Origin: a virus
Taxonomy: Duplodnaviria; Caudoviricetes
IMG/VR virus record: IMGVR_UViG_3300022885_000070
Location: 1-26,369 of that record
Length of the DNA: 26,369 bases
Strand: one strand, 5' to 3'
Position numbers and translations under genes: made by a program. Below, piece after piece: positions 1 through 20,894 of this stretch. The stretch's first letter is position 1, and each line of letters begins with the position of its first letter. The notes beneath the pieces are model-generated. The model was not told where the DNA came from, searched no databases, and saw only the letters and a list, made by a program, of their open reading frames with translations.

Positions 1-2757
1 ATAGGTAACAACCTTTCTGACGTACTTGATGCAGGTACAGCAATATCTAACTTAGGTGTAGATACGTTGCTAGATTTAAAAGCTCCCTTGGCAGACCCAG
101 ACTTTACAGGAGAAATATCTGCTGACCAAGTTAAAATAAACAGCACAGATTTTAAATTAATATTTGACTATATAGACCCACCATATATTTCTGGTGTTAC
201 ACTTACAACAGCAACAACTGGAGGAACAATTACGGCTGGTACATATTATACAACAGTAACTTTTGCAGATGCTAACGGATATGAAACAGAACAATCTGTT
301 ACCTCAAACTCAGTCACAACATCTGGCTCAACTTCAACTATTACAGTTAATGATTTGCCAGTTAGTCCTAATTCAAATGTGACTAAAAGAAGAATCTACT
401 TTGCTAACACAAATATTAATCTTCAAATAAAACAGGATGTGAATGATAATACATCGACATCTGCTGTAATCACCTCTACCACATCTGGGGGGATTAATAT
501 ATGGAGAGGTAAGACATTTAGTAATGTTTTAGGTTTCGGTAATACTATGGGTGGCCACATCTTTGACGAGAACGGTGATTCTATTCTATCAGTAGGCAAA
601 GAGGGACAAGTTAGATTCGAGAGCTTACATGGGCACCTTGTAGTGCCAAATAGAAATTCAACATCAGACGGGTCAGGAGGATTGATTGTATTTAATACAG
701 ATGATGAGGAAAGTAATGTTGAATATGGAGCATTTGAATATGTGAATGATGTTCTTGAAATTGGACATAAAGGCAGAGGTTCATTTGCCTCAAGAGAAGT
801 AAGATTAGTCTCATTTCAACCAGGAGTTGAGTTTCGTGCATCTTTACAAAGAGGGAATAGTCTTGCGGGTTGGTTCAATATAACCGATGGGGGAACTTCA
901 ACTCCAGATATTAATTTTGTTAAATACGATCCGGGCGTATGGACCGCCTCATATGGAACTAATAGAATACTTAACTTAACCAACTCCATAAATATGTCTG
1001 GCTCTTCGGGGTATTCTATTTTTGAAATCAACGTCATAGAAAACACTACTGGTTCTGGGGAAAAAACCCTTGCAAATTTTAAAGTAGGGGGTTCAAGTAA
1101 GTTTACAGTAGATAGCAGTGGTAATGGATATTTTGCTGGTAACGTCGGAATAGGGACGACATCACCAACTGCAACACTAGAGGTTTACAGCACTAATGAT
1201 AGTGTGGCTAATTTTCGTGGAAATGATCATTCCCTTGTATTTATTGAAGGTTCAGGGAGTTCTGAAAAAAGTCTTAACTTTACTACAAATGGAGTAAATG
1301 GTTTACAATGGAAAGTTGGATTAGATAATGCTCCTGCGCAAGATGCTGGTAAGTTTTCAATTAAGAAAACTAATAATGCATCTGCTGAATTTACTATTGA
1401 TACAACAGGTAACGTCGGGATTGGGACGACGACTCCCGGTGCCAAATTGCAAATAGATACAGGAGCAACAGGAACTATTGGTCAGATCATCAAAGGTTTT
1501 TCAGGGCAGACAGCTAATCTTCAAGAATGGCAAAACAGTTCAGGAACCGTTTTAAGTGTCGTTAATTCTGTCGGTAACGTCGGGATTGGAACGACATCAC
1601 CAAGTTCAAAACTAACGGTTCAGGGTGATACTGTATTGAATTCAAGCAAAACATTGAGCCTCAGAGATTCGGATGGATTCGAACGGTTTTACGTAGCAGA
1701 TGATGGTACAGTTCTATTTCAATCGGGAAATAAAAATGCCGCTTACTATATGTATTGGTCACCAACCATTGCTGGTGGTGCTGGTGGTCTTAGCATGTCT
1801 AATTGTGGAATTTATCTTTGGGGTAGTGGTAGTAAGCTCACATCAATAAATAGTCCACTATATTTGAACGGCTCACACACAAGCGGCAAAGCCGTCTATA
1901 TGTATGCGTCTAGTCCATCAGTTCCAGACATGGCTGTTAAGGATGGAAGTGTAGGAATCGGCACCGGGACTACTGCCCCTAGTGCAAAGTTAGAGGTTGT
2001 TGGTGATGCTTTAATTAGCGGAACAGTTAACGGCAGAAATATCTCAACAGATGGGGCAAAATTAGATACGAGGTGGGGAGATGAAAAATTAACGCAACTA
2101 CACGACGTTACCTCGACTTATTTCTCGGCGTTGAATTTAAACGGTGGATCTAGTTCTACCACATTCGGTAATCAATTATGTGGTTCTACCGCATCTACTA
2201 CTACGATTGATTCTGTTTCTGTCATTAACCATATAGGCCAATCTTTGAATTATATGAATACAGCGATGCAAGGTTTGGCATGGAGAAACCCCTTTACTGT
2301 AATACATACTGTTGCATGGTTGGTCGTTACCTCATCGACTCTTGTGTGGATGCGACTCGGATCTACAAGTGTTTACCATGTTAACCCACCACCAGCTACC
2401 CCCGATTACGTTTCGGCTGGATGGGTAATAACTGAGTCTTCAACCTCACTAGTAAAGTTCAAGGCGTATAGTTATTCAGCAGGGGTCATTTCGTATGGGG
2501 ATGAAATAACCACATTTTCTTTTATCGTGGATGGCCCGTTGAGTTTTATTACCACTTCCGATGGAACCACAGTAAAGGTTGTTGTTGTAAACGGGTCTCA
2601 AGTCAAGAGTGGTGTATCTCAAGTCTCGGCTCCATCAGAAAGTTACTCCCATTCCGTAGCATCAATTGGGACCATAAATGATGGCATTACTGGAAGTGCC
2701 GGAAATTTGCGCTTGACTGGTTCGGTAAAATATGGGCCAATATATATTGATGTCTAA
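1..2757 (+). CDS. Tail fibre / receptor-binding virion protein, 5'-truncated at the window edge
   Basis: Frame 1 is open from base 1 (IGNNLSDVLDAGTAISNLGVDTLLDLKAPLADPDFTG), so the TTG at 67 is probably not the true start. Contains fibre-type motifs NNLSDV..A..NLG and KAPLADPDFTG, three GNVGIGTT(S/T)P units plus GSVGIGTGTTAP, and VNGRNISTDGAKLD; Gly/Ser/Thr/Asn-rich beta-strand composition. Confidence 0.75.
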   Translation: MGNNLSDVLDAGTAISNLGVDTLLDLKAPLADPDFTGEISADQVKINSTDFKLIFDYIDPPYISGVTLTTATTGGTITAGTYYTTVTFADANGYETEQSVTSNSVTTSGSTSTITVNDLPVSPNSNVTKRRIYFANTNINLQIKQDVNDNTSTSAVITSTTSGGINIWRGKTFSNVLGFGNTMGGHIFDENGDSILSVGKEGQVRFESLHGHLVVPNRNSTSDGSGGLIVFNTDDEESNVEYGAFEYVNDVLEIGHKGRGSFASREVRLVSFQPGVEFRASLQRGNSLAGWFNITDGGTSTPDINFVKYDPGVWTASYGTNRILNLTNSINMSGSSGYSIFEINVIENTTGSGEKTLANFKVGGSSKFTVDSSGNGYFAGNVGIGTTSPTATLEVYSTNDSVANFRGNDHSLVFIEGSGSSEKSLNFTTNGVNGLQWKVGLDNAPAQDAGKFSIKKTNNASAEFTIDTTGNVGIGTTTPGAKLQIDTGATGTIGQIIKGFSGQTANLQEWQNSSGTVLSVVNSVGNVGIGTTSPSSKLTVQGDTVLNSSKTLSLRDSDGFERFYVADDGTVLFQSGNKNAAYYMYWSPTIAGGAGGLSMSNCGIYLWGSGSKLTSINSPLYLNGSHTSGKAVYMYASSPSVPDMAVKDGSVGIGTGTTAPSAKLEVVGDALISGTVNGRNISTDGAKLDTRWGDEKLTQLHDVTSTYFSALNLNGGSSSTTFGNQLCGSTASTTTIDSVSVINHIGQSLNYMNTAMQGLAWRNPFTVIHTVAWLVVTSSTLVWMRLGSTSVYHVNPPPATPDYVSAGWVITESSTSLVKFKAYSYSAGVISYGDEITTFSFIVDGPLSFITTSDGTTVKVVVVNGSQVKSGVSQVSAPSESYSHSVASIGTINDGITGSAGNLRLTGSVKYGPIYIDV
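1138..1980 (+). repeat. Dispersed GNVGIGTT(S/T)P repeats inside the fibre gene
   Basis: ggtaacgtcgg(a/g)at(a/t)gg(g/a)acgac at 1138, 1408 and 1573; a degenerate fourth copy (GSVGIG) at about 1945. Confidence 0.85.
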
Positions 2758-2870
2758 TATCTATTGATTTCTGGAACACCCTTAAATCGGACGCGACTCT
2801 TTCTGGTTCCATGGGAGAAGAAATTAAAAACATAAAAAATGACACAAGTTTGATACCAGCCATTTTATAA
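2751..2870 (+). pseudogene. Possible stranded C-terminal remnant of a virion protein gene
   Basis: Frame 3 reads CLISIDFWNTLKSDATLSGSMGEEIKNIKNDTSLIPAIL* directly behind the fibre stop codon, with an in-frame TGA at 2748 and no upstream start; it stops 1 nt before the next ATG (2872). Confidence 0.4.
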
Positions 2871-2871
2871 C

Positions 2872-3069
2872 ATGAACAGTACACCACAAACCGAGAACGC
2901 AGGTTCCGAAAGACCAGAACAAGAAAACAACCAGTTTACACCAGCACAGGCATTGAGCAATCTTTACCTCGCATCAAAAATGGCACCTCTTACGGCGAAT
3001 GATCATGATGTTTTGAAGAACTCCGCGATTGTATTGCAGAACATCATCACGAAAGAAAAAAATGATTAA
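2872..3069 (+). CDS. Small hypothetical protein, paralogue A (possible fibre-associated chaperone)
   Basis: 65 aa; core TPAQALSNLYLASKMAPLTANDHDVLKNSAIVLQ is shared with 3169-3378, and in-frame conservation supports coding. Confidence 0.75.
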   Translation: MNSTPQTENAGSERPEQENNQFTPAQALSNLYLASKMAPLTANDHDVLKNSAIVLQNIITKEKND

Positions 3070-3299
3070 ACTGCTCTCAGTTGCGCTAATACTTGGAAAA
3101 GAAGTGGACTATCTACTTGGTAATTTTTAAAGCTTGTAATTAACCAATCCGCGAATAAATATTGATATATGTCAGATACACCAACAACCAAAAATAAAGA
3201 TTCCAAAGCACCGGAACAAGGAGAAATCACCCCAATTCAGGCACTGAACAATTTGTACATGGCATCAAAAATGGCACCTCTTACGGCGAATGATCATGA
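2971..3299 (+). repeat. 38-bp perfect direct repeat (2971-3008 and 3262-3299)
   Basis: gcatcaaaaatggcacctcttacggcgaatgatcatga is identical in both paralogues. Confidence 0.95.
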
Positions 3300-3378
3300 A
3301 GTCTTAAAAAAATCAGCAGTACTTTTACAAGAATTTATAAATGGTCAGACTGTGGATTCTAATTTACCAGTGAGGTAA
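3169..3378 (+). CDS. Small hypothetical protein, paralogue B
   Basis: 69 aa; TPIQALNNLYMASKMAPLTANDHEVLKKSAVLLQ; preceded by AATAAATA (3154-3161); 3' end overlaps the convergent ATPase gene by 34 nt. Confidence 0.75.
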   Translation: MSDTPTTKNKDSKAPEQGEITPIQALNNLYMASKMAPLTANDHEVLKKSAVLLQEFINGQTVDSNLPVR

Positions 3379-4142
3379 TCCTTCACACAAGTCTGGAAAA
3401 TCTCGATACATTTGGTAGAATAATTTTCTTCCATATCGAAAATCTTGGCACCCAAATTAAACAAAACAAATGGACTGTGGGTTGCAATAATGATCTGATA
3501 GTTGTCAGAGAGTCCTTCCAAGAGTCTGAATAATTCCATTTGTTTAGGTAAAGACAGTGCTCTTTCTGGTTCATCGAATAGAAGAGTTACCTTACCATTT
3601 TTCGGAAGTGTCTTGATATAGTTTCCCTCTGGTGTGCTACCATGTAGAACAGGTGGTGATTCGATGACATTTAAGATTTTGTTGATTTTCTGTAGACGAT
3701 ACTGTCCAGATGATGGTTTTAGGGCCATGGTGTCCATATGATCGTCTCCGGTGCTGATACCGTCCTCTGACATCTTTTCATTGGAAAAGAACCATGAGAG
3801 TCCATCTACCTTCACATCACCCTCATTAAAGAAAGATGGTGTTCCGTCCCACCCAACATTGGCCAAACAATTCCCCGGAGAAAAAATATTATAGGCATGT
3901 GGGAATTGGTCTGCCCGAGATGCCGAAAAGGATAGTTCCTCACTTATCTGTGACCAACCACCCTGACGAATCCCACAATATGCCTTCATAATCTTCAAGA
4001 GGCTAGACTTTCCACAACCATTTGGGCCGAACAATACATTCATTTTATCGGTAAAGGTGAATGTATAATTTTTTACACACTCTAGGTCGGTTGCATAACC
4101 TTTAAGAACTTGGATATTATCGATCATTTTCGTCCCTTTCAC
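3345..4142 (-). CDS. Stand-alone ABC-family ATPase (AAA_15/AAA_21-like)
   Basis: Walker A GPNGCGKS, signature-like SSGQ, Walker B/D-loop LLFDEPERAL, H-loop IIATHS. Start could be 4127 (MIDNIQV). Confidence 0.85.
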   Translation of the reverse strand: MKGTKMIDNIQVLKGYATDLECVKNYTFTFTDKMNVLFGPNGCGKSSLLKIMKAYCGIRQGGWSQISEELSFSASRADQFPHAYNIFSPGNCLANVGWDGTPSFFNEGDVKVDGLSWFFSNEKMSEDGISTGDDHMDTMALKPSSGQYRLQKINKILNVIESPPVLHGSTPEGNYIKTLPKNGKVTLLFDEPERALSLPKQMELFRLLEGLSDNYQIIIATHSPFVLFNLGAKIFDMEENYSTKCIEIFQTCVKDYLTGKLESTV

Positions 4143-6050: not shown

Positions 6051-8234
6051 ATGGCATCTAGAACAATTGCATCACCCGGTATTCAAATTAATGAAGTTGA
6101 TTTAAGCATTATCGCTCGTCCTACAGCCGAGACTAATGTTTTTATGACGGGTTTTACACCCCAAGGACCAACTGATGAAATCATAAATGTTGGTAGCACT
6201 AGTGAATTTGAGGACATTTTCGGTCAACCAGAAAACTCGGCAGAAAGATATTTTTACCATTCCGCCAAACAAAGTTTAGAAGGATCTGCAAATCTTTTGG
6301 TAACTCGTATGCCTTACGGTTCGGGTGCTGGTGCTGGTTTTGCAAATAGTTATAGTGCATTGGTTTACCCTTTATCTTCTAACACTGCTAAGTATGCAAC
6401 TTCCACTGAATTTGTTGTTCTCGAACCATATTCGGTTCTTTTGACCAACGCAGAATATCAAGATGTGGTTGATGGGAGCATCAATTGGAATGAGGGATAT
6501 TCTACTGGTAATATTACCGATGCTTCTGGTTTGAGTAAAGCTGGTATCGTTGTTTTGGATTATGCAAAAACAACCATAAACAATATCTTTGAAGGTTACT
6601 ATGTTGGATTTGCGGATAATAGCAACAACAACCCTGCCACAAATTTCGACGCTCTTAGTGGTGTCAAATCTGTAAATTCAATCACAAACAACAAGTATCA
6701 AAGTTTTACATATGTACCACCTGCTAGAATGTCATTCACCTTGACAAGCACATATTCTGCATATGGTAGTGGTTCTATATCTGAGGCAATTGAAGCACTT
6801 CCTACCGGATTCGATTTTGGCAATCCTTCTTACACGGATAGTTTGACATTGGGTATTTTTAAACTTCGCCCATCGATCTACAACCAAGATACTGTAACTC
6901 TCGATTATATCACTTCCGAAGGATATACCGGTTCTTTGAATAAAAACAGAACTCAGAATGATCCCAACGGTGGATCACCTAAGACATTTTTCTTGGAAAG
7001 CATGGTAAACCTTCGCTCTCCTAGTTTTAAGGTTATCACGAACCCATATATTTCATCTAGTGGTGATTGGACAGCACCGGATGGTAATCCACAAAAGACG
7101 GTAACAGTTTCCGATGGTGCCAAGAATCTATATTCTGCTGGTATTTACGCTACCGATACAGATAAAAGCGCAAAAGATGTCGGAAATGTTCCGGCAAAAC
7201 TCCAGAGAATTTTAAGAATCTTAGAAAATGCCGATGATGTCAGAGTTGATGTCATTCCGGAAGCTGGTTTAGGAACTGTTTGGGTTGGTGCTAAGGCTCG
7301 CCAAGTTGCTTACTCGACACAACCACAGATCTTTGATGATACTTTTAATGTTGATTATAGTGTTCTTAAATCTACAGACGGGTCTATCGTCGGTGGTGTC
7401 AGAGATGATTATCTATCAATTGTTAATCAGTTTGTTAGCTTTGCTCAAAATGTTAGAAAAGATCATTTGTTCATTGCTGATGCTCTTCGTTACATTTATG
7501 TAAACGGAGATAACACCAAAACAACGAAGAGAGAAAATTATATATTTTCTACCGATATCTATTGGCCTTTGAAGAATCTCTTTGCTGGTGTTGAAACATC
7601 ATATGCAACGGTGTTCGGTAACTGGTTGAAATTAAACGACACTGCATCTGATAGCCAAGTATGGGTTCCTTCTTCTGGATTTGTAGCTGCTAAATGCGCA
7701 GAAGTTGATCGAACCGCTTACCCTTGGACCGCAATTGGTGGTTTTAATCGAGGATCTTTGAATGGTGTTTCCGATATTGGTGTAACAACAACCCAGAAGC
7801 AAAGAGATCTTCTTTACAAAATTAATATCAACCCAATTGCATTCTTCCCCAATGATGGATTTGTTCTTTATGGACAAAAAACATTATACAGAAAACCATC
7901 GGCATTTGATAGAATTAATGTTAGAAGATTGTTTTTATATCTCGAAAAGAACACACAAAGTGTTTTGAAATATTTCCTATTCGAACCCAATACGTTCTCA
8001 ACCAGAACTCGTCTGGTTGGTGCTCTGACTCCGGTTTTCGAAAAAGCCAGAATTAACGATGGTGTCTATGACTATCAGATAGTATGTGACGAGAGGAATA
8101 ATACTCCTGATGTTATCGATGCTAATGAACTTAGGGTATCTCTATACATCCAACCAGTTAGAACTGCTGAATATATTTTGGCTGACTTCATTGCTACTCG
8201 AACAGGGGTCAATTTTAACGAATTGATTGGTTAA
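6051..8234 (+). CDS. gp18: Contractile tail sheath protein (T4 gp18-like)
   Basis: N-terminal SPGIQINEVDLS, QGPTDE; C-terminal PWTAIGGFNRG, RDLLYKININPI, GQKTLYRKPSAFDRINVRRLF, FLFEPN, VCDERNNTPDVIDANEL, IQPVRTAEYI. Confidence 0.97.
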   Translation: MASRTIASPGIQINEVDLSIIARPTAETNVFMTGFTPQGPTDEIINVGSTSEFEDIFGQPENSAERYFYHSAKQSLEGSANLLVTRMPYGSGAGAGFANSYSALVYPLSSNTAKYATSTEFVVLEPYSVLLTNAEYQDVVDGSINWNEGYSTGNITDASGLSKAGIVVLDYAKTTINNIFEGYYVGFADNSNNNPATNFDALSGVKSVNSITNNKYQSFTYVPPARMSFTLTSTYSAYGSGSISEAIEALPTGFDFGNPSYTDSLTLGIFKLRPSIYNQDTVTLDYITSEGYTGSLNKNRTQNDPNGGSPKTFFLESMVNLRSPSFKVITNPYISSSGDWTAPDGNPQKTVTVSDGAKNLYSAGIYATDTDKSAKDVGNVPAKLQRILRILENADDVRVDVIPEAGLGTVWVGAKARQVAYSTQPQIFDDTFNVDYSVLKSTDGSIVGGVRDDYLSIVNQFVSFAQNVRKDHLFIADALRYIYVNGDNTKTTKRENYIFSTDIYWPLKNLFAGVETSYATVFGNWLKLNDTASDSQVWVPSSGFVAAKCAEVDRTAYPWTAIGGFNRGSLNGVSDIGVTTTQKQRDLLYKININPIAFFPNDGFVLYGQKTLYRKPSAFDRINVRRLFLYLEKNTQSVLKYFLFEPNTFSTRTRLVGALTPVFEKARINDGVYDYQIVCDERNNTPDVIDANELRVSLYIQPVRTAEYILADFIATRTGVNFNELIG

Positions 8235-8240
8235 TTAAAT

Positions 8241-8274
8241 AAAAATAAAGACTTGAAAAGGTCTTTATTTTTTT
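8241..8274 (+). terminator. Intrinsic terminator hairpin after the sheath gene
   Basis: Perfect 12-bp inverted repeat AAAAATAAAGAC (8241-8252) / GTCTTTATTTTT (8261-8272), 8-nt loop, running into a T tract. Confidence 0.6.
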
Positions 8275-8281
8275 GTATAAT
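8253..8281 (+). promoter_or_regulatory. Sigma70-type promoter TTGAAA-N17-TATAAT
   Basis: -35 at 8253-8258, -10 at 8276-8281; overlaps the hairpin; 15 nt upstream of ATG 8297. Confidence 0.65.
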
Positions 8282-8296
8282 AGTGTAATTAATACT

Positions 8297-10090
8297 ATGA
8301 CATACGATCTCAAAATTATAAACGACATTAAAACAAATCTCATAAAAACAGATGGAGAAACCGTAAATTCCGCAATTATTCGACGGGATTGGTTCAAGTC
8401 ATCGGAAACATATAAAACTATATTAAAAATTACTCATTTTTTGGATATCAAAAATCCATCAGTAAGTGAAAGAATATATTGTATTATGAATGGCATAGAA
8501 AAATCTCCTACATGTAAATTTTGTAATATATACGAGAAAAGGTTTGTATCATCTAAGCAAGGATACAGATCATGTATCAATAAAAAATGCCAAAGAATGT
8601 ATAAAAAATGGAAAAGTCCATCAAAAAATAAAATAGATAATTATGCTCAATTATGTTTGGAACTATCCGATAAATTTAAATCAAACCAGTATAACCTATC
8701 AGAAATCTCTAAATTAAAAGAATATATAGAGATGAAGGTAGATAGAAAATATAAAAATATATCATATGTAAATCCGAAGATTATTAAAAATGATTTCGAT
8801 TTTCTTTTAAGTGCCGTATATTATACCCAAGATATATTACCACTAACATCTGATAAAACATCTTTAAATATGAGCGAACGGTATTTTTTAATAGTAAATG
8901 ATCTAAAAACACCCCAAAAATGTTTGTGCGGTAATAATAGAAAATTTTTGAATTTTTATTCCGGATATCAGAAAGAGTGTGGAAATGTATGTAGGCGCGG
9001 GAAGAGGTTAATAGAAATTAAAGACAATGTTTTAGACACCCAAAATATGACAATATTATCAGATTTTAATACTCTAAAAAATAATACGTTTCAAATCCAA
9101 TGTAATGAGTGCAATAAGATCCATGAAAGATCGTTAACCAATGCGCGTTGGATGGATATATATTGTCCAACATGTTATGGTGATGCTAATTCTTCAAAGG
9201 AAGAAAAAGATGTTTTGGCGTATATCCAAACCTTATATTCTGGTGAAATATTAGAAAATTCCAAAATCGATAATTTAGAAATAGATATTTTGTTACCCGA
9301 TATAGGTGTGGGGTTTGAATATGATGGTCTTCTTTGGCATTCTTTTGGATCAAACTTTCCTAACAATCAAGACAAAGAAAAAAATAATAAAAATAGAGGA
9401 TTAATAAAAACCAAAAAATGTGAAGAATCTAATATTAAACTTTTTCATATCAATTCAGATGAGTGGTATTCTCCAAATAATAAAGATATCTGGAAATCTA
9501 TGATTCGTAATGCACTGGGAAAATCTAATAGAATATATGCACGAAAATGCTCTATTGTTAACGATCTACCATTCGAAGAAGTCCGAAAATTTCTAGAAAA
9601 TAATCATTTACAGGGGCACGACAAAAGTCCTATAAGATCTGGATTATATTTTGATGGGGAATTGGTCTCTATTATGACATTTTCAAAACCCAGATTTAAT
9701 AAATCATATGAATATGAACTTGTTCGTTTTTGTAATAAAAAAAATTGTGGAGTTATTGGTGGTGCTTCTAAACTATTTTCGAACTTTCTAAAAATTTACA
9801 ATCCTCTATCTGTTATCAGTTATGCCGACAGACGGTATAGCGGTGGTAATTTATACAAATCGTTGGGGTTTTCGTTTAAAGAAAATACAAGAATTGGATA
9901 TTTTTATATTAAAAATATCGGAACCAAAACATATAAAAAAGTATCTAGAGTTTCGGCCCAGAAACATAAACTCCCAAAGTTCCTAGAAAAATTTGATGAA
10001 AATTTGACCGAAGTTGAAAATATGTTTATGAATGAGTATAGAAGAGTTTGGAATTGTGGCAATTCTACATTCATTTATCGTAGACTGTAA
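8297..10090 (+). CDS. Free-standing homing endonuclease, Hef-like (Vsr/DUF559-type nuclease with Zn-binding repeats and a C-terminal GNAT-like domain)
   Basis: Nuclease motif EIDILLPDIGVGFEYDGLLWHS; C-terminal IYARKC, FLENNHLQG, YELVRFC, GGASKLF, ISYADRRYSGG, RVWNCG; two SER(I/Y)...CxxC repeats; Lys/Asn-rich and more AT-rich than the flanking genes. ATG 8297 is preferred over TTG 8273, which overlaps the predicted -10. Confidence 0.85.
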   Translation: MTYDLKIINDIKTNLIKTDGETVNSAIIRRDWFKSSETYKTILKITHFLDIKNPSVSERIYCIMNGIEKSPTCKFCNIYEKRFVSSKQGYRSCINKKCQRMYKKWKSPSKNKIDNYAQLCLELSDKFKSNQYNLSEISKLKEYIEMKVDRKYKNISYVNPKIIKNDFDFLLSAVYYTQDILPLTSDKTSLNMSERYFLIVNDLKTPQKCLCGNNRKFLNFYSGYQKECGNVCRRGKRLIEIKDNVLDTQNMTILSDFNTLKNNTFQIQCNECNKIHERSLTNARWMDIYCPTCYGDANSSKEEKDVLAYIQTLYSGEILENSKIDNLEIDILLPDIGVGFEYDGLLWHSFGSNFPNNQDKEKNNKNRGLIKTKKCEESNIKLFHINSDEWYSPNNKDIWKSMIRNALGKSNRIYARKCSIVNDLPFEEVRKFLENNHLQGHDKSPIRSGLYFDGELVSIMTFSKPRFNKSYEYELVRFCNKKNCGVIGGASKLFSNFLKIYNPLSVISYADRRYSGGNLYKSLGFSFKENTRIGYFYIKNIGTKTYKKVSRVSAQKHKLPKFLEKFDENLTEVENMFMNEYRRVWNCGNSTFIYRRL

Positions 10091-10116: not shown

Positions 10117-10659
10117 ATGAGTGGATTATTAGACCAAACCGGAATTGAAAACTTCTATGATGTAGCATCGGTAAACGATTTTGCAAGAAAAAACTTATTT
10201 AGAGTAGTTGCCCTTGGTGGGCAGAGGTTTAATCTTAATGAACTTATCTATATGGAGACAGCAATTCTTCCTGAAAGAGAGATCACCAACATCCAAATCC
10301 CATTTATGGGATTAGATTTCAATGCGCCGGGAACCGCGAAGTATCCCGGTTCTAGTGATTGGAACGTTCTTTTTCGTATGCCTCAAAACCTTTCTATCCG
10401 TAGAAAGTTAGAAGACTGGTCGAACTACATATTCAACGACCAGACATCAACGGGTGCATATGATATCCCTAATAAGGACGTTTCTAACCAAACTATCATT
10501 ACTCTGATAGATAAGCAAGGAAATCCAATTAGAACATATACACTCTTCGGGTGTTATTGTCGTAAAGTCGGAACCTTTGATTTAGATATGAAAGATACTG
10601 GAACCCTTGTAACAACAACCGCTTCTATCGCATATCAATATTTCCGTTTATCTCGTTAA
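10117..10659 (+). CDS. gp19: Tail tube protein (T4 gp19-like)
   Basis: 180 aa; ARKNLFRV, AILPEREITNIQIPFMG..FNAPG, IRRKLEDW, LIDKQGNPIRTYTLFGCY, IAYQYF; downstream of the sheath; TATAAGTA at 10100-10107. Confidence 0.88.
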   Translation: MSGLLDQTGIENFYDVASVNDFARKNLFRVVALGGQRFNLNELIYMETAILPEREITNIQIPFMGLDFNAPGTAKYPGSSDWNVLFRMPQNLSIRRKLEDWSNYIFNDQTSTGAYDIPNKDVSNQTIITLIDKQGNPIRTYTLFGCYCRKVGTFDLDMKDTGTLVTTTASIAYQYFRLSR

Positions 10660-17166: not shown

Positions 17167-17853
17167 GTGGCAAGAAAACAGAAACCCATTCCAGTAGTTG
17201 ATGATGATATTCTAATCAACGGCCAATTCTATAAAGGTAACGAGCAGTTATTAAATAAGAACGCAAAAATAGGGTTCACTCCAGAGATGTTGGAGGAACT
17301 AAAATCTTGCACGAAGAACGTTTTATTCTTTGCAGAAAGACATTTTAATATCATCACCGAGGATGGTCGAGAGGTTATTAAACTTAGACCGTTCCAGAAA
17401 AAAATTCTCAAGAATCTTAAGAATTTTAAAAGACATGTGTTGTGTTGTACTAGACAGGCAGGTAAAACCACAATTGTTTCTGTATATGCTCTATGGAAAG
17501 CATGTTTCTTTGATCATCAAAGGATTGCTATTCTTGCAAATAAAGGGGAAACTGCCGAACAAATTTTCGAACGAGTTAGAATGGCCTTCGAGAATTTACC
17601 AATGTATCTCAAACCAGCCGTAAAATCTTGGAGAAAAAATGGTTTCGATCTAACTAATGGTTCGAGTATCATCATTAGTTCAGCATCTTCTTCTTCTATT
17701 CGTGGTAGATCGATTAATTGTGTGTCCGGTGATAGTATAGTAACAATGAGAAATAAATTAACAGGAGAAATTTTCAAAATTCCTATGAAAAATATCCCAG
17801 AAAAAATCGGTGGGATAAAATATTCGGATACCGAATTTATTTTAGATGATTAG
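17167..17853 (+). CDS. terL: Terminase large subunit part 1 (aa 1-184, N-terminal ATPase) fused to split-intein N-half 1
   Basis: GTG start; adenine-binding LRPFQ, Walker A TRQAGKTT, IAILANK, FENLPMYL, NGSSI, IRGRSIN; then the intein block A CVSGDSIV. Confidence 0.93.
   Translation: MARKQKPIPVVDDDILINGQFYKGNEQLLNKNAKIGFTPEMLEELKSCTKNVLFFAERHFNIITEDGREVIKLRPFQKKILKNLKNFKRHVLCCTRQAGKTTIVSVYALWKACFFDHQRIAILANKGETAEQIFERVRMAFENLPMYLKPAVKSWRKNGFDLTNGSSIIISSASSSSIRGRSINCVSGDSIVTMRNKLTGEIFKIPMKNIPEKIGGIKYSDTEFILDD
17719..17853 (+). mobile_element. Split intein 1, N-half (44 aa)
   Basis: CVSGDSIVTMRNKLTGEIFKIPMKNI...DD*, starting exactly where the terminase sequence breaks before Walker B. Confidence 0.88.
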
Positions 17854-17927
17854 CTGTATGTCGAATCGTCAAGAATTACCTATTGGTTGGATGAAAAGAA
17901 CCGATCATACAAAAACAAAAAAATGAT

Positions 17928-18269
17928 ATGGCAGATGTAACAAATTACAAAATATTTAAAAATGATGACTTCGAAATCTTAACCAAAGATGGATTTCAGG
18001 ATTTTAAAGGATTAATTGTTGGGAAAAATATAAATAAACTATTATTAACATTTTCGAACGGCAAATCATTATTATGCACTCATCATCATAAAATTATGAT
18101 AGATGATTTAAACTTTATTTATGCACATGATATGGTGGTCGGTGATCACATTTTCGGTGGACATATATTGATATCTTCCGAAAATGTTGAGAACGATGAG
18201 CCTGTATACGAATTTCTAGAAATTGAAAATAATCACACTTATTATGCCAATGATATATTATCCAACCAA
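17928..18269 (+). mobile_element. Split intein 1, C-half (114 aa), Gln-terminated
   Basis: FEILTKDGFQDFKG, block B CTHHHKI, block F/G EPVYEFLEIENNHTYYANDILSNQ followed by Cys+1 at 18270. Confidence 0.9.
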
Positions 18270-18659
18270 TGTCTGATCATTGATGAAGCTGCACATATTC
18301 CAAATGATTTGATGAAAGAAATTTGGAAATCTGTCATTCCTACCATCTCGGCCAATAAAAATGGAGAAATTATAACCATCTCAACTCCTAACGGTGCCGA
18401 TAAAGATAATAAATTCTATCAATTATATCTAGAAGCTCAAAAAGAAAATAGTATATGGGCACTAATGTTGGTAAATTGGTGGGAAATTGAGGGTAGAGAT
18501 GAAGAATGGAAAAAACAGGAAATCGAAACCATTGGATCTTTACATGACTTTTTACAAGAATATGAAAATTGTGTAAGTGGTGAAAGTATTCTAGATTTGA
18601 TAAGTATTGATAACGAATACACCAAAAAATCAATTGAACAACTCTATATCGATATGTAA
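17928..18659 (+). CDS. terL: Terminase large subunit part 2: intein C-half 1 (114 aa), 100-aa extein, intein N-half 2 (29 aa)
   Basis: Extein 18270-18569 has Walker B CLIIDEAAHIP, coupling motif ISTPNG, VNWWEIEGRDEEW and FLQEYEN. Confidence 0.93.
   Translation: MADVTNYKIFKNDDFEILTKDGFQDFKGLIVGKNINKLLLTFSNGKSLLCTHHHKIMIDDLNFIYAHDMVVGDHIFGGHILISSENVENDEPVYEFLEIENNHTYYANDILSNQCLIIDEAAHIPNDLMKEIWKSVIPTISANKNGEIITISTPNGADKDNKFYQLYLEAQKENSIWALMLVNWWEIEGRDEEWKKQEIETIGSLHDFLQEYENCVSGESILDLISIDNEYTKKSIEQLYIDM
18570..18659 (+). mobile_element. Split intein 2, N-half (29 aa)
   Basis: CVSGESILDLISIDNEYTKKSIEQLYIDM*, with block A plus the (S/K)IE(Q/D)LY end typical of short TerL intein N-halves. Confidence 0.88.
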
Positions 18660-18921
18660 ACTCGATAAAGGACTTTATAGTTCCGTCCCAATCAAACGAG
18701 AAAACGCAAACACCAAAAGGAGAGAAACCAATTTTAAATTGTATGGGAATTTTTCACCAAATACTTTTGGGGTATTATCCCGATGGTTATTGTCATGAGA
18801 CCAATACTATCTACGAACTATATAAAAGATATGATAAACAGAAGAATTCTGATAATAGACAATCTGAAATTGTCGAAAACTCGGGTGTAATTTTGTAATC
18901 ATATGGGATATTAAAAAATGA
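18660..18921 (+). pseudogene. Decayed Vsr-like homing endonuclease between the halves of intein 2
   Basis: Frame 1 KRRETNFKLYGNFSPN; frame 2 LGYYPDGYCHETNTIYELY...DNRQSEIVEN (18767-18880); frame 1 LGCNFVIIWDIKK* with its TGA (18919-18921) overlapping the ATG at 18918. Confidence 0.7.
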
Positions 18922-19235
18922 AAAAAAACAATAAAGGTTATAAAATTTTAACACCATCTGGATATCAATCTTTTGATGGTATACGAAAAATAAAAAAGAA
19001 AGTATATAAAGTCGAAACCGAGACTAAAATTATTCGGGTTACTCTGGATCATCCATTTCAAGTGGATGGTAAAGTTGTTTTAACCAGAGATTTATCTCTA
19101 TGGGATATGTTAGAAACTAAAGCGGGTAAGGAGATGGTTTTAGATATAAGCCCAGATGGTGAAGAATGGGTTTTTGATCTAATAAATGTAAAAAATGGAA
19201 GTATTTATTATGCAAATGACATATTGGTTCATAAC
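18918..19235 (+). mobile_element. Split intein 2, C-half (106 aa)
   Basis: YKILTPSGYQSFDGI, block B VTLDHPF, block F/G WVFDLINVKNGSIYYANDILVHN followed by Cys+1 at 19236. Confidence 0.93.
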
Positions 19236-20273
19236 TGTTTCCACCCTCCCGGTAAATCTGTCATTGATCCTGCCTTATTGGAAAAGCTAAAATCTCAATG
19301 CAATGAACCAATTTTGGTTACTGATGATGGTGCATACAAAATATATACACTACCGAAACCCACAAGTTTTTATGTGATAGGCGTTGATGTAGGTGAAGGT
19401 ATCGGTCGAACAAATAGTGTTGCTCAAATATTAGATATATCTGATTTAAGAAATATTGAGCAGGTTGCTGTTTATGCGCGGAACGATATGAGTCCCTATG
19501 TGTTTGGAACCCGTTTAATGGGCATTCTGAACGATTGGGGACGACCTCCGATAGCAATTGAAACAAATAATTACGGTCAACAAATATTGGATGTGTTGAA
19601 TAATACACACAATTACGAATCGTTGGTGACTTATAGACCGGATGGTCAATCTTCGCACTACAATCGCGAAGGTCGATTGGGAATCTATAGTCATACAAAT
19701 ACCAAATATAAAGGTTTGACGAATTTCCGATATTGGATCGATAGTATAAAGGCCGTTAAGTTCAACGACTTGGATACTCTTATCGAAATTTCCGAATTTA
19801 TCCAATTACCAAATTACACATTTGGTAAAAAGAATGATTCTGATAGAGATGATCGCGTATTTGGATTAGTTTGGGCATTGTTTATGTTAGAACCATCATT
19901 AACCAGAATGTTTTTCAACATAGTTGAAACCGATGAACAAGGAAGACCCTTGATTATTACACCATTCATCGACAATTCTGATCTAATTAAGAAAAGTCCA
20001 ATATTTAGTGGTGATGTTAATGTTTATAAAAAAGAAGAAAGTGTGTTTAATCCGTTAGCATTTATGCCAACCGCCCCAGATAAAGATTCTACATTAGCAG
20101 ATGAGGAAAGTATGTTAGGAGGTTGGTTGCTTAAATGGGAACCCACCGATAAACCGTTGAACGAGTATAAACAATACAATCCAGAAATTATATGGAAATC
20201 TGATGATGTTATAAAACAAGAGGAAAGATTAATCGACGAAGATAATTCTAATAGACCAATTTTTCTATTCTAA
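18918..20273 (+). CDS. terL: Terminase large subunit part 3: intein C-half 2 (106 aa) plus 345-aa nuclease domain
   Basis: After VHN: CFHPPGKSVID, RNase H-fold nuclease motifs YVIGVDVGEGIG, AIETNNYG, DRDDRVFG. Confidence 0.93.
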   Translation: MKKNNKGYKILTPSGYQSFDGIRKIKKKVYKVETETKIIRVTLDHPFQVDGKVVLTRDLSLWDMLETKAGKEMVLDISPDGEEWVFDLINVKNGSIYYANDILVHNCFHPPGKSVIDPALLEKLKSQCNEPILVTDDGAYKIYTLPKPTSFYVIGVDVGEGIGRTNSVAQILDISDLRNIEQVAVYARNDMSPYVFGTRLMGILNDWGRPPIAIETNNYGQQILDVLNNTHNYESLVTYRPDGQSSHYNREGRLGIYSHTNTKYKGLTNFRYWIDSIKAVKFNDLDTLIEISEFIQLPNYTFGKKNDSDRDDRVFGLVWALFMLEPSLTRMFFNIVETDEQGRPLIITPFIDNSDLIKKSPIFSGDVNVYKKEESVFNPLAFMPTAPDKDSTLADEESMLGGWLLKWEPTDKPLNEYKQYNPEIIWKSDDVIKQEERLIDEDNSNRPIFLF

Positions 20274-20285
20274 CTAATTATTTCT

Positions 20286-20894
20286 ATGAATCAAGCAATC
20301 CTAAACAAACAACGCCATGATAAATTCATTATGGTTTTGAGTATTCCACCGATCATGCGAGATATAATTGATGTGGTGTCAGATGATAAATTTGACCCGG
20401 ATTCTTTACAATTTTCGTGCTATGGTTCCCCGGTCCCTAATGTAAGTATTCCATCTATCGATGTTCCTTATGGCGGTCAGGTGATAAAAATATCTAGCAA
20501 TTCTCGACCAGTTTTTCCATCATTTGTATTAACATTTGTCATCGATAATGGTTGGAGAAATTACTGGATTCTATTATCGTGGTTAAACTTGTTCAACGAT
20601 CAAAAAGATGGTTCGACTAGCTATAACCATGGAAATAGATCCGAATCAGAACCTTATGCAGCAGATAAAAATAATATACCTTTCCGCGATATGGTATCAT
20701 CCTTTAAGACCTATGCAATCGATGAGTATAATAAAAAAATTATGGGGTTTGATTTTACCAATGTTTTCCCAACAGAAATAAGCGAAATTGGGTTTTCCCA
20801 TCAAGACCCATCTGAAATTATTTGTAAGGCATCATTTGCCTTTAACCAACTTCATCCTAAGTTAATTAGAGATATTGATAAGAACAATTGTTAA
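20286..20894 (+). CDS. Tail completion / tube terminator protein (T4 gp3-like, tube fold)
   Basis: LQFSCYGSPVPNVSIPSIDVP, FVLTFVIDNGWRNYWILLSWL, FDFTNVFPTEISEIGF, CKASFAF. Confidence 0.7.
   Translation: MNQAILNKQRHDKFIMVLSIPPIMRDIIDVVSDDKFDPDSLQFSCYGSPVPNVSIPSIDVPYGGQVIKISSNSRPVFPSFVLTFVIDNGWRNYWILLSWLNLFNDQKDGSTSYNHGNRSESEPYAADKNNIPFRDMVSSFKTYAIDEYNKKIMGFDFTNVFPTEISEIGFSHQDPSEIICKASFAFNQLHPKLIRDIDKNNC

Follow-up and report, generated by a model that had tools for sequence, protein, structure and literature searches.

The closest described counterparts of the locus reported here are the atypically split inteins of phage large terminases (TerL), in particular AceL-TerL, GOS-TerL and Cat, for which the primary papers are reportedly those of Thiel 2014, Bachmann and Mootz 2015 and Stevens 2018. 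Like the inteins described below, these are hosted by a phage TerL and combine a short N-terminal half (IntN; 25–37 residues) with a long C-terminal half (IntC; 104–115 residues) that contains block B, with a cysteine both as the first residue of the intein (Cys1) and as the first residue after it (Cys+1; the structure of Cat is PDB entry 6DSL). The individual fragment sizes are given in a review as 37/115 residues for GOS-TerL, 25/104 for AceL-TerL and 30/104 for Cat (PMC11766414). GOS-TerL and AceL-TerL have been described as single splits that give a two-piece terminase, whereas the locus described here appears to hold two such inteins in one gene. It lies on IMG/VR record IMGVR_UViG_3300022885_000070, a 26,369-base fragment from an uncultured salt-lake phage (hereafter the window, meaning the whole stretch of DNA that was analysed), in which three open reading frames (ORFs) on the same strand together encode one T4-type TerL in pieces. 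The three ORFs carry two different predicted atypically split inteins in this one TerL gene, and the middle ORF has the order IntC–extein–IntN.

The three-piece arrangement has a counterpart in protein engineering. In the tandem trans-splicing of Pinto et al. (2020; PMC7090010) a middle piece of the same IntC–extein–IntN order is used and two inteins join three polypeptides; the pairs for engineered three-piece ligation were chosen and tested for orthogonality, whereas the pair in the window is natural and predicted from its sequence. The genetic setting resembles the fractured genes reported by Dassa et al. (2009), in which the halves of a split intein are separated by a free-standing gene for a GIY-YIG or Vsr-like endonuclease (PMC2677866). 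The same source describes the first such terminase split intein, with its unusual break point and long C part, as well as a DnaE-1 locus in which the C part of a further intein is present. The literature searched yielded no account of a terminase that is naturally made in three pieces, this DnaE-1 locus being the nearest hint of one; the papers on AceL-TerL, GOS-TerL, Cat and VidaL may mention one.

ORF1 (17167–17853, 228 residues with a GTG start), ORF2 (17928–18659, 243 residues plus stop) and ORF3 (18918–20273, 451 residues), all on the plus strand, contain the Walker A motif, the Walker B motif and the C-terminal RNaseH-like nuclease in the order of a T4-type TerL. Extein 1 (17167–17718) comprises the N-terminal 184 residues of TerL, with the Walker A motif TRQAGKTT at residues 95–102, matches to Terminase_6N, phrog_5989 and phrog_2, and an N-terminus that resembles that of the relative P0004. 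Extein 2 (18270–18569; 100 residues, ORF2 residues 115–214) begins with the +1 cysteine, contains the Walker B motif CLIIDEAAH and an STPNG motif, and ends in ..LQEYEN. Extein 3 (19236–20273, stop codon included) comprises 345 residues from CFHPPGKS onwards, corresponds to the TerL nuclease domain and is collinear with P0007 and P0029; the match of ORF3 residues 154–323 to Terminase_6C (E-value 0.0056) lies under the curated cut-off. The family profiles run on from ORF1 to ORF2: Pfam Terminase_6N aligns residues 96–196 of ORF1 with profile positions 6–110 (E-value 3.6e-10) and residues 116–212 of ORF2 with positions 100–196 (E-value 0.063, under the cut-off), and phrog_2 aligns residues 67–184 of ORF1 with positions 261–365 and residues 114–200 of ORF2 with positions 365–451, the profile being continuous across the junction. 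Both junctions are fixed to the residue by relatives that lack an intein at the site in question and continue across it, with RGRSIN-ILIVDECAH in P0004 at junction 1 and QEHEN-VFHPPGKS in P0029 at junction 2 (here and below, a hyphen within a motif marks the insertion point). The exteins sum to 184 + 100 + 345 = 629 residues, or 529 residues without the middle piece. The preliminary description of ORF2 as a C-half at the N-terminus followed by an N-half at the C-terminus is thereby borne out in sizes and topology, its coordinates of 17928–18659 being exact, and the extein arithmetic agrees with the 100-residue Walker B segment and the 529-residue product that it had put forward.

Intein 1 is divided between ORF1 and ORF2. 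IntN1 (17719–17850) is a 44-residue N-half (CVSGDSIV...FILDD) that contains block A only and is closed by the stop codon at 17851–17853, and IntC1 (17928–18269) is a 114-residue C-half at the N-terminus of ORF2, with the conserved start MAD(V/L)T.YK, block B within CTHHH and the end ..YYANDILSNQ before the cysteine of extein 2. Intein 2 is divided between ORF2 and ORF3. IntN2 (18570–18656; ORF2 residues 215–243, CVSGESILDLISIDNEYTKKSIEQLYIDM) is a 29-residue N-half that starts with CVSGESIL and is followed by the stop codon at 18657–18659, and IntC2 (18918–19235) is a 106-residue C-half with block B within VTLDH and the canonical end ..VHN. The split thus falls between block A and block B in both cases (44/114 and 29/106 residues), and the presence of block B inside both C-halves makes both inteins atypically split. 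Cys1 of each intein (ORF1 residue 185 and ORF2 residue 215) stands where intein-free relatives continue, and neither Cys115 nor Cys215 of ORF2 varies in a set of 20 diverse middle fragments. The block B pattern T-x-x-H is represented by T51-H-H-H54 in IntC1, with T51 and H54 kept in at least 90% of the rows, and by T-L-D-H in IntC2. Intein 2 ends in His-Asn and intein 1 in Asn-Gln, each followed by Cys+1.

Comparison with known inteins supports this assignment. IntC1 and IntC2 match CatC, the C-half of the consensus atypical TerL intein (6DSL_B), with E-values of 5.3e-6 and 1.3e-9, and gp41-1 (6QAZ) with E-values of 0.0055 and 0.0045; IntC1 also matches VidaL. The PDB search with the short N-halves IntN1 and IntN2 gave no meaningful match, and the Pfam family Intein_splicing was reached only under its cut-off (E-values 0.48 and 0.75). 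N-halves of the same length as IntN1 (44 residues) are present at the same junction in loci L064 and L065, and the phrog_5989 match of ORF1 runs on into IntN1, to residue 218. Tails homologous to IntN2 are found in P0002, P0004, P0014 and 40 other proteins, and IntC2 is 59–69% identical to P0162–P0164. In an AlphaFold2 model of ORF2 alone, the predicted local distance difference test score is 85–97 for IntC1, 41–74 for extein 2 and 56–79 for IntN2, with residues 216–218 below 50.

No frameshift and no internal stop is present in ORF1–ORF3, and identical copies of the three-ORF locus, with its stops and spacers, are found in L004, L005 and L129. Contigs of runs X16, X19 and X24 span the ORF ends with no differences, and the sequence of the locus is unchanged across runs from 2017 to 2019. 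Among the metagenome contigs of this phage there was no allele without inteins or with an endonuclease gene, the metagenome scan having given one identical copy. Joining of the ORFs by read-through or frameshifting was considered and rejected: additional stops follow in the frame of ORF1, ORF2 is read in a frame other than that of ORF1, and the frame shared by ORF2 and ORF3 is interrupted by several stops in the spacer. Promoter-like sites are no commoner than in shuffled sequences, and the only terminator-like hairpins are weak.

The distribution of the two inteins among relatives is sporadic. P0004, with 72% identity in the part that aligns, has intein 2 without intein 1, L065 has intein 1 only, and L097 has intein 2 only, although it is 98% identical over extein 2 and IntN2 to P0014, which does have intein 1. 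Most related loci have neither. Spacer 1 (17854–17927, 74 nucleotides) contains no endonuclease gene and no ORF; at the corresponding position, between IntN1 and IntC1, L064 has a 292-residue GIY-YIG gene (L064 1925–2803; SegE_GIY-YIG E-value 0.001 and GIY-YIG E-value 0.0034, both under the curated Pfam cut-offs). Spacer 2 (18660–18917 on the plus strand, 258 nucleotides) precedes ORF3 and contains what is left of a free-standing gene for a DUF559 (Vsr-like) endonuclease, of which relatives have an intact version. Residues 16–74 of an open frame at 18659–18895 (best part about 18704–18880) resemble the C-terminal part of such a gene, with 49% identity over 63 residues (BLASTP E-value 1e-14) to the C-terminal ~63 residues of a ~300-residue ORF that lies between IntN2 and IntC2 in L097, and with weaker matches to L066 and L067 (E-value 5e-5). 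Pfam DUF559 matches the ORF of L066 with an E-value of 9.5e-5 and that of L097 with an E-value of 0.041; the spacer 2 fragment of the window itself has no Pfam match. We take DUF559 to have a Vsr-like nuclease fold.

Free-standing endonuclease genes between intein halves are thus found in L064, L066 and L097 and not in the window, which differs from the fractured genes described previously in that spacer 1 has no endonuclease gene, spacer 2 has a remnant only and two split inteins occupy a single gene. The independent gain and loss of the inteins, together with their ties to homing endonuclease genes, is the signature of selfish elements rather than of a conserved regulatory device, and the topology of the middle piece is most readily understood as a side effect of two invasions that took place independently. 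Another intein was seen in L065, where a terminase N piece (2702–3892, plus strand) is interrupted at the Walker A lysine by a contiguous intein whose first residue is Ala (..QVGK-ALDINTP...PTHN-S) and not Cys or Ser. It may be an intein that has no N-terminal nucleophile, of the class 2 or class 3 type, and split intein 1 follows later in the same gene.

The IntC–extein–IntN layout is not unique to the window and, to judge from homologous proteins, is common among phage terminases. A word-indexed search (11 matches at E ≤ 0.001 among 228 candidates) returned P0003 and P0005, both of 243 residues, 45–47% identical to ORF2 and with the same order of parts. An exhaustive search of representatives gave 2076 proteins at E ≤ 0.001, of which the best 150 were curated for middle fragments. 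A rule flagged 29 of these 150 and seven were dropped by eye, six as false tails or truncations (P0030, P0040, P0045, P0101, P0130 and P0151) and one as unclear (P0050), so that 22 of the best 150 cluster representatives are middle fragments of this kind. In three of the 22 (P0013, P0026 and P0097) the middle extein contains a third, contiguous intein. Up to three inteins are seen in one terminase. The points of insertion are not uniform. At least four adjacent ones are found around Walker B (N-CLIIDE in the window, HN-CNLLALDE, N-CDEAAF and DE-CAF), and there are two at site 2, either after QEYEN, as in the window, or one residue earlier. The third inteins lie at ..AFIE-C in P0013 and in the ST(P/A)NG motif in P0026 and P0097, where the inserts amount to several hundred residues and probably include an endonuclease domain.

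At the level of complete loci, three terminase pieces are found among the 127 rows compared only in the window, in five copies of the window and in L064, which has all three. Scans with P0014, P0137 and P0149 gave no further three-piece loci, only loci with a single split or none. P0002 (338 residues) is a middle fragment of another kind, with a C-half from a Walker A (P-loop) site (..GILSHN-TTTV) in front and IntN2 at its end, which indicates that three-piece terminases arise from different pairs of sites.

Cultured Campylobacter phages (Fletchervirus) provide a related case, having, like the window, an atypically split TerL intein adjoining Walker B. In one of them, CPX (JN132397.1; L164 and L001), the N piece (2602–3318, minus strand) ends in ..LIFIDE followed by a 32-residue N-half (CVAGDT..) and is annotated as 'hypothetical protein', and its C piece (25271–26599, plus strand) starts with a 100-residue IntC that ends in SHN before CAFIDKW and is annotated as 'putative DNA packaging protein'. 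Unlike the window, CPX has a single split, with the insertion after the Asp-Glu of Walker B, halves that are ~22 kb apart on opposite strands and no intein annotation. With respect to the systems described in the opening paragraph, we infer that the insertion site of AceL-TerL and GOS-TerL is site 2 of the window; intein 1 differs from both in its site (before Walker B), its 44-residue N-half and its Gln end.

The two inteins of the window are placed by the available C-half sequences in different site-specific clades. In a quick maximum-likelihood tree (117 columns) that covers 82 C-halves, of which 74 come from the Walker B region and eight from site 2, IntC1 falls within a clade of 20 rows that are exclusively from site 1 and IntC2 within a clade of five rows that are exclusively from site 2, with support values of 93 and 96, respectively, in the Shimodaira–Hasegawa-like approximate likelihood-ratio test. 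The site label changes twice on this tree, compared with 7.7 times in shuffles, and none of 500 shuffles was as low. Many forks of the tree are not resolved, and three rows from the Walker B side join those from site 2. IntC1 and IntC2 are themselves 26% identical (E-value 5e-10), and the BLAST alignment of IntN1 with IntN2 is confined to their first ten residues, six of which are identical. The preliminary description had called the two inteins related on the basis of their N-half starts and a shared YYANDIL. The likeness of the starts holds, and the C-halves have recognizable similarity, but the motif is found in a loose form in 33 of the 82 C-halves of the group and is therefore a family block that indicates no special tie between inteins 1 and 2.

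The C-terminal ends of the IntC1 clade are also characteristic, being Gln in 16 of the 20 rows (HQ in ten, KQ in three, and NQ, SQ and MQ in one each) and Asn in four. Inteins that end in Gln in place of Asn are reported to splice in the case of Pab Pol II, Mma Pol II and CIV RNR, with cyclization of the Gln as the proposed third step (PMC4031507). The inteins treated in that source are contiguous and reside in polymerases and a reductase, whereas in the present case a Gln end is typical of an entire clade of split TerL inteins. At the other end of IntC1 the head is nearly invariant, with M1, A2, D3, T5, K8, F10 and N12 fixed in alignment A1 of the relatives. As judged by eye, the ~16 first residues of IntC1 (17928–17975, MADVTNYKIFKNDDFE) and the ~15 last residues of IntN1 (17806–17850, ..IKYSDTEFILDD) are without counterpart in intein 2. 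This extra tail and head may form an additional pair of strands by which the cognate halves are locked to each other.

The order IntC–extein–IntN on one chain is also that of SICLOPPS (split-intein circular ligation of peptides), which requires both cognate halves of one intein. ORF2 has this order, but its two halves are not cognate, IntC1 pairing by position with IntN1 on ORF1. Because the halves on ORF2 come from two inteins of different clades, cyclization is not the expected outcome. The preliminary description was nevertheless right about the consequence of the topology, namely that for a full terminase to be made the halves on the middle piece must react neither with each other nor with the non-cognate outer halves.

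We consider it probable that the halves pair mostly with their cognate partners, for the simple reason that the two inteins are members of old, diverged families. In the mechanism that we propose, two separate protein trans-splicing reactions would join the three products into one 629-residue TerL. Two mobile fractured-gene elements, each a split intein with a free-standing homing endonuclease, would have entered the gene in separate invasions, their endonucleases being lost afterwards, so that the IntC–extein–IntN middle piece would be a by-product of the invasion history and not a device. Each N-half would pair mainly with its own C-half, as the halves diverge beyond block A. The pairing of intein 1 would be aided by the extra 15-residue tail of its N-half and the conserved head of its C-half, both absent from intein 2, and its splicing would proceed via cyclization of the terminal Gln. 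A second invasion that gave a cross-reactive pair would lead to loss of the terminase, and only compatible pairs would persist. The points that we count against cross-reaction of any importance are the distance between the two C-halves, the additional tail and conserved head of intein 1, the essential nature of the gene, the sequence unchanged from 2017 to 2019 and the recurrence of the layout in many lineages.

Several observations weigh on the other side. The record has a completeness of 12% according to CheckV, and what was covered is 26 kb of this phage together with a 52-kb record, in which Terminase_6N has a single match, so that a second, intact terminase gene may lie elsewhere. Intein 1 ends in Asn-Gln without the penultimate His that ten of the 20 members of its clade have, and its activity is accordingly an assumption. 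IntN1 and IntN2 have six of their first eight residues in common, and IntN1 has up to 14 identities over 30 aligned residues with N-halves from site 2 in other phages (P0149, P0137 and P0091). The N-halves of both sites are thus one sequence family, and sequence by itself does not dismiss cross-reaction. Experience with other split inteins points both ways, since mutual orthogonality held for 15 of the 16 split inteins tested, and the crosstalk reported from a 24 × 24 matrix was mostly with atypical splits that have one short-peptide piece (PMC7090010).

Signs of adaptation against crosstalk are also lacking where they were sought. Over 24 middle fragments there is no correlation between the net charge of IntC1 and that of the IntN2 carried with it (r = −0.04); the two are negative together in 19 of the 24, compared with ~19.3 expected from the marginal totals. 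IntN1 and IntN2 of the window have 11 aligned identities, above the median of nine for IntN1 against 44 site-2 N-halves (rank 35 of 44), which gives no sign of divergence in a within-genome comparison that is underpowered, both N-halves being at hand from two genomes only (the window and L064). These results lend no support to the earlier proposal that the pair is a naturally selected orthogonal set. Charge complementarity as a rule of specificity was tried and rejected: in the window IntN2 has a net charge of −4, the first 40 residues of IntC2 +9 and IntC1 −10, the pattern in L064 is the opposite and the 24 fragments display no correlation.

Alternatively, the pair may be leaky, with measurable cross-reaction that yields a cyclic or polymerized 100-residue piece and a Walker-B-less product of 529 residues as tolerated waste. 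We regard this as unlikely. The start CVSG(D/E)SI common to both N-halves, the single family formed by the N-halves of the two sites and the failure to detect tuning against crosstalk in either charge or N-half divergence are what such leakage would lead one to expect, and the literature adds that crosstalk occurs mostly among atypical short-peptide splits (PMC7090010) and that, according to a review, the N-halves of GOS-TerL and AceL-TerL are interchangeable (PMC11766414). However, the two C-halves, with no more than 26% identity, belong to separate clades, and the N-halves differ in length (44 compared with 29 residues). The layout has moreover been kept in at least 22 representative clusters and was unchanged over the sampling years, a persistence which suggests that any losses by cross-reaction are small.

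A far more doubtful proposition is that the phage makes use of such cross-reaction, so that alternative protein splicing would yield either a Walker B peptide in cyclic form or a 529-residue terminase devoid of ATPase activity, which would tune packaging. The topology allows both cyclization of the middle piece and its skipping, and the preliminary description had on these grounds envisaged a source of regulatory isoforms. Against this stand the absence of each intein from close relatives whose exteins are 70–98% identical, the ties of the inteins to homing endonucleases and the shift of the insertion points by a few residues between lineages. Sporadic presence, endonuclease ties and shifting insertion points argue for selfish insertion and not for a conserved regulatory product; with the inteins coming and going independently among close relatives, and both sites tied to endonuclease genes or their remnants, regulatory isoforms are disfavoured.

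Finally, we give very little credence to the idea that no splicing takes place, the pieces either assembling non-covalently through their intein halves or belonging to a decaying gene with another terminase elsewhere in the ~200-kb genome: it would suit the Asn-Gln end of intein 1 with its missing penultimate His, a window that covers ~12% of the genome and the loss or degradation of both endonuclease genes, but both inteins retain Cys1, block B, a Gln or Asn at the end and the +1 Cys (Cys115 and Cys215 being invariant in 20 fragments), the three ORF starts are conserved among relatives and the frames are free of frameshifts and internal stops, the 52-kb record contains one Terminase_6N match, and Gln-ended inteins are reported to splice in other systems (PMC4031507).

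The surroundings of the terminase pieces are those of a myovirus, with baseplate genes and genes for the tail sheath and the tail tube. Tail-tube-like genes occur twice on the plus strand, each assigned to phrog_45, one (20286–20894) directly after the terminase pieces and the other (10117–10659) after the sheath and endonuclease genes. This endonuclease gene (8273–10090, plus strand) is placed between the tail sheath gene (6051–8234) and the second of these tail tube genes (10117–10659), and encodes a 605-residue HNH/homing endonuclease (phrog_3339, E-value 3.8e-95; phrog_559, E-value 4.7e-92). It is a further free-standing mobile nuclease, belonging to the structural module, and recalls the Hef-like genes annotated in the Campylobacter phage CPX.

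In protein labelling and semisynthesis, atypically split inteins with short N-halves are highly valued, and the ligation of three pieces calls for pairs free of cross-reaction. A phage whose essential gene holds two inteins of this type has, in effect, already come through a compatibility test in vivo, and the more than 20 diverged lineages with this layout would provide a list of candidate pairs for testing, the pair described here having halves of 44/114 and 29/106 residues. If the phage were found to use incomplete orthogonality, the locus would be a case of natural alternative protein splicing that tunes DNA packaging. For the biology of these phages, the case shows how far selfish elements may fragment an essential gene, and what the end state looks like once the homing endonucleases have decayed.

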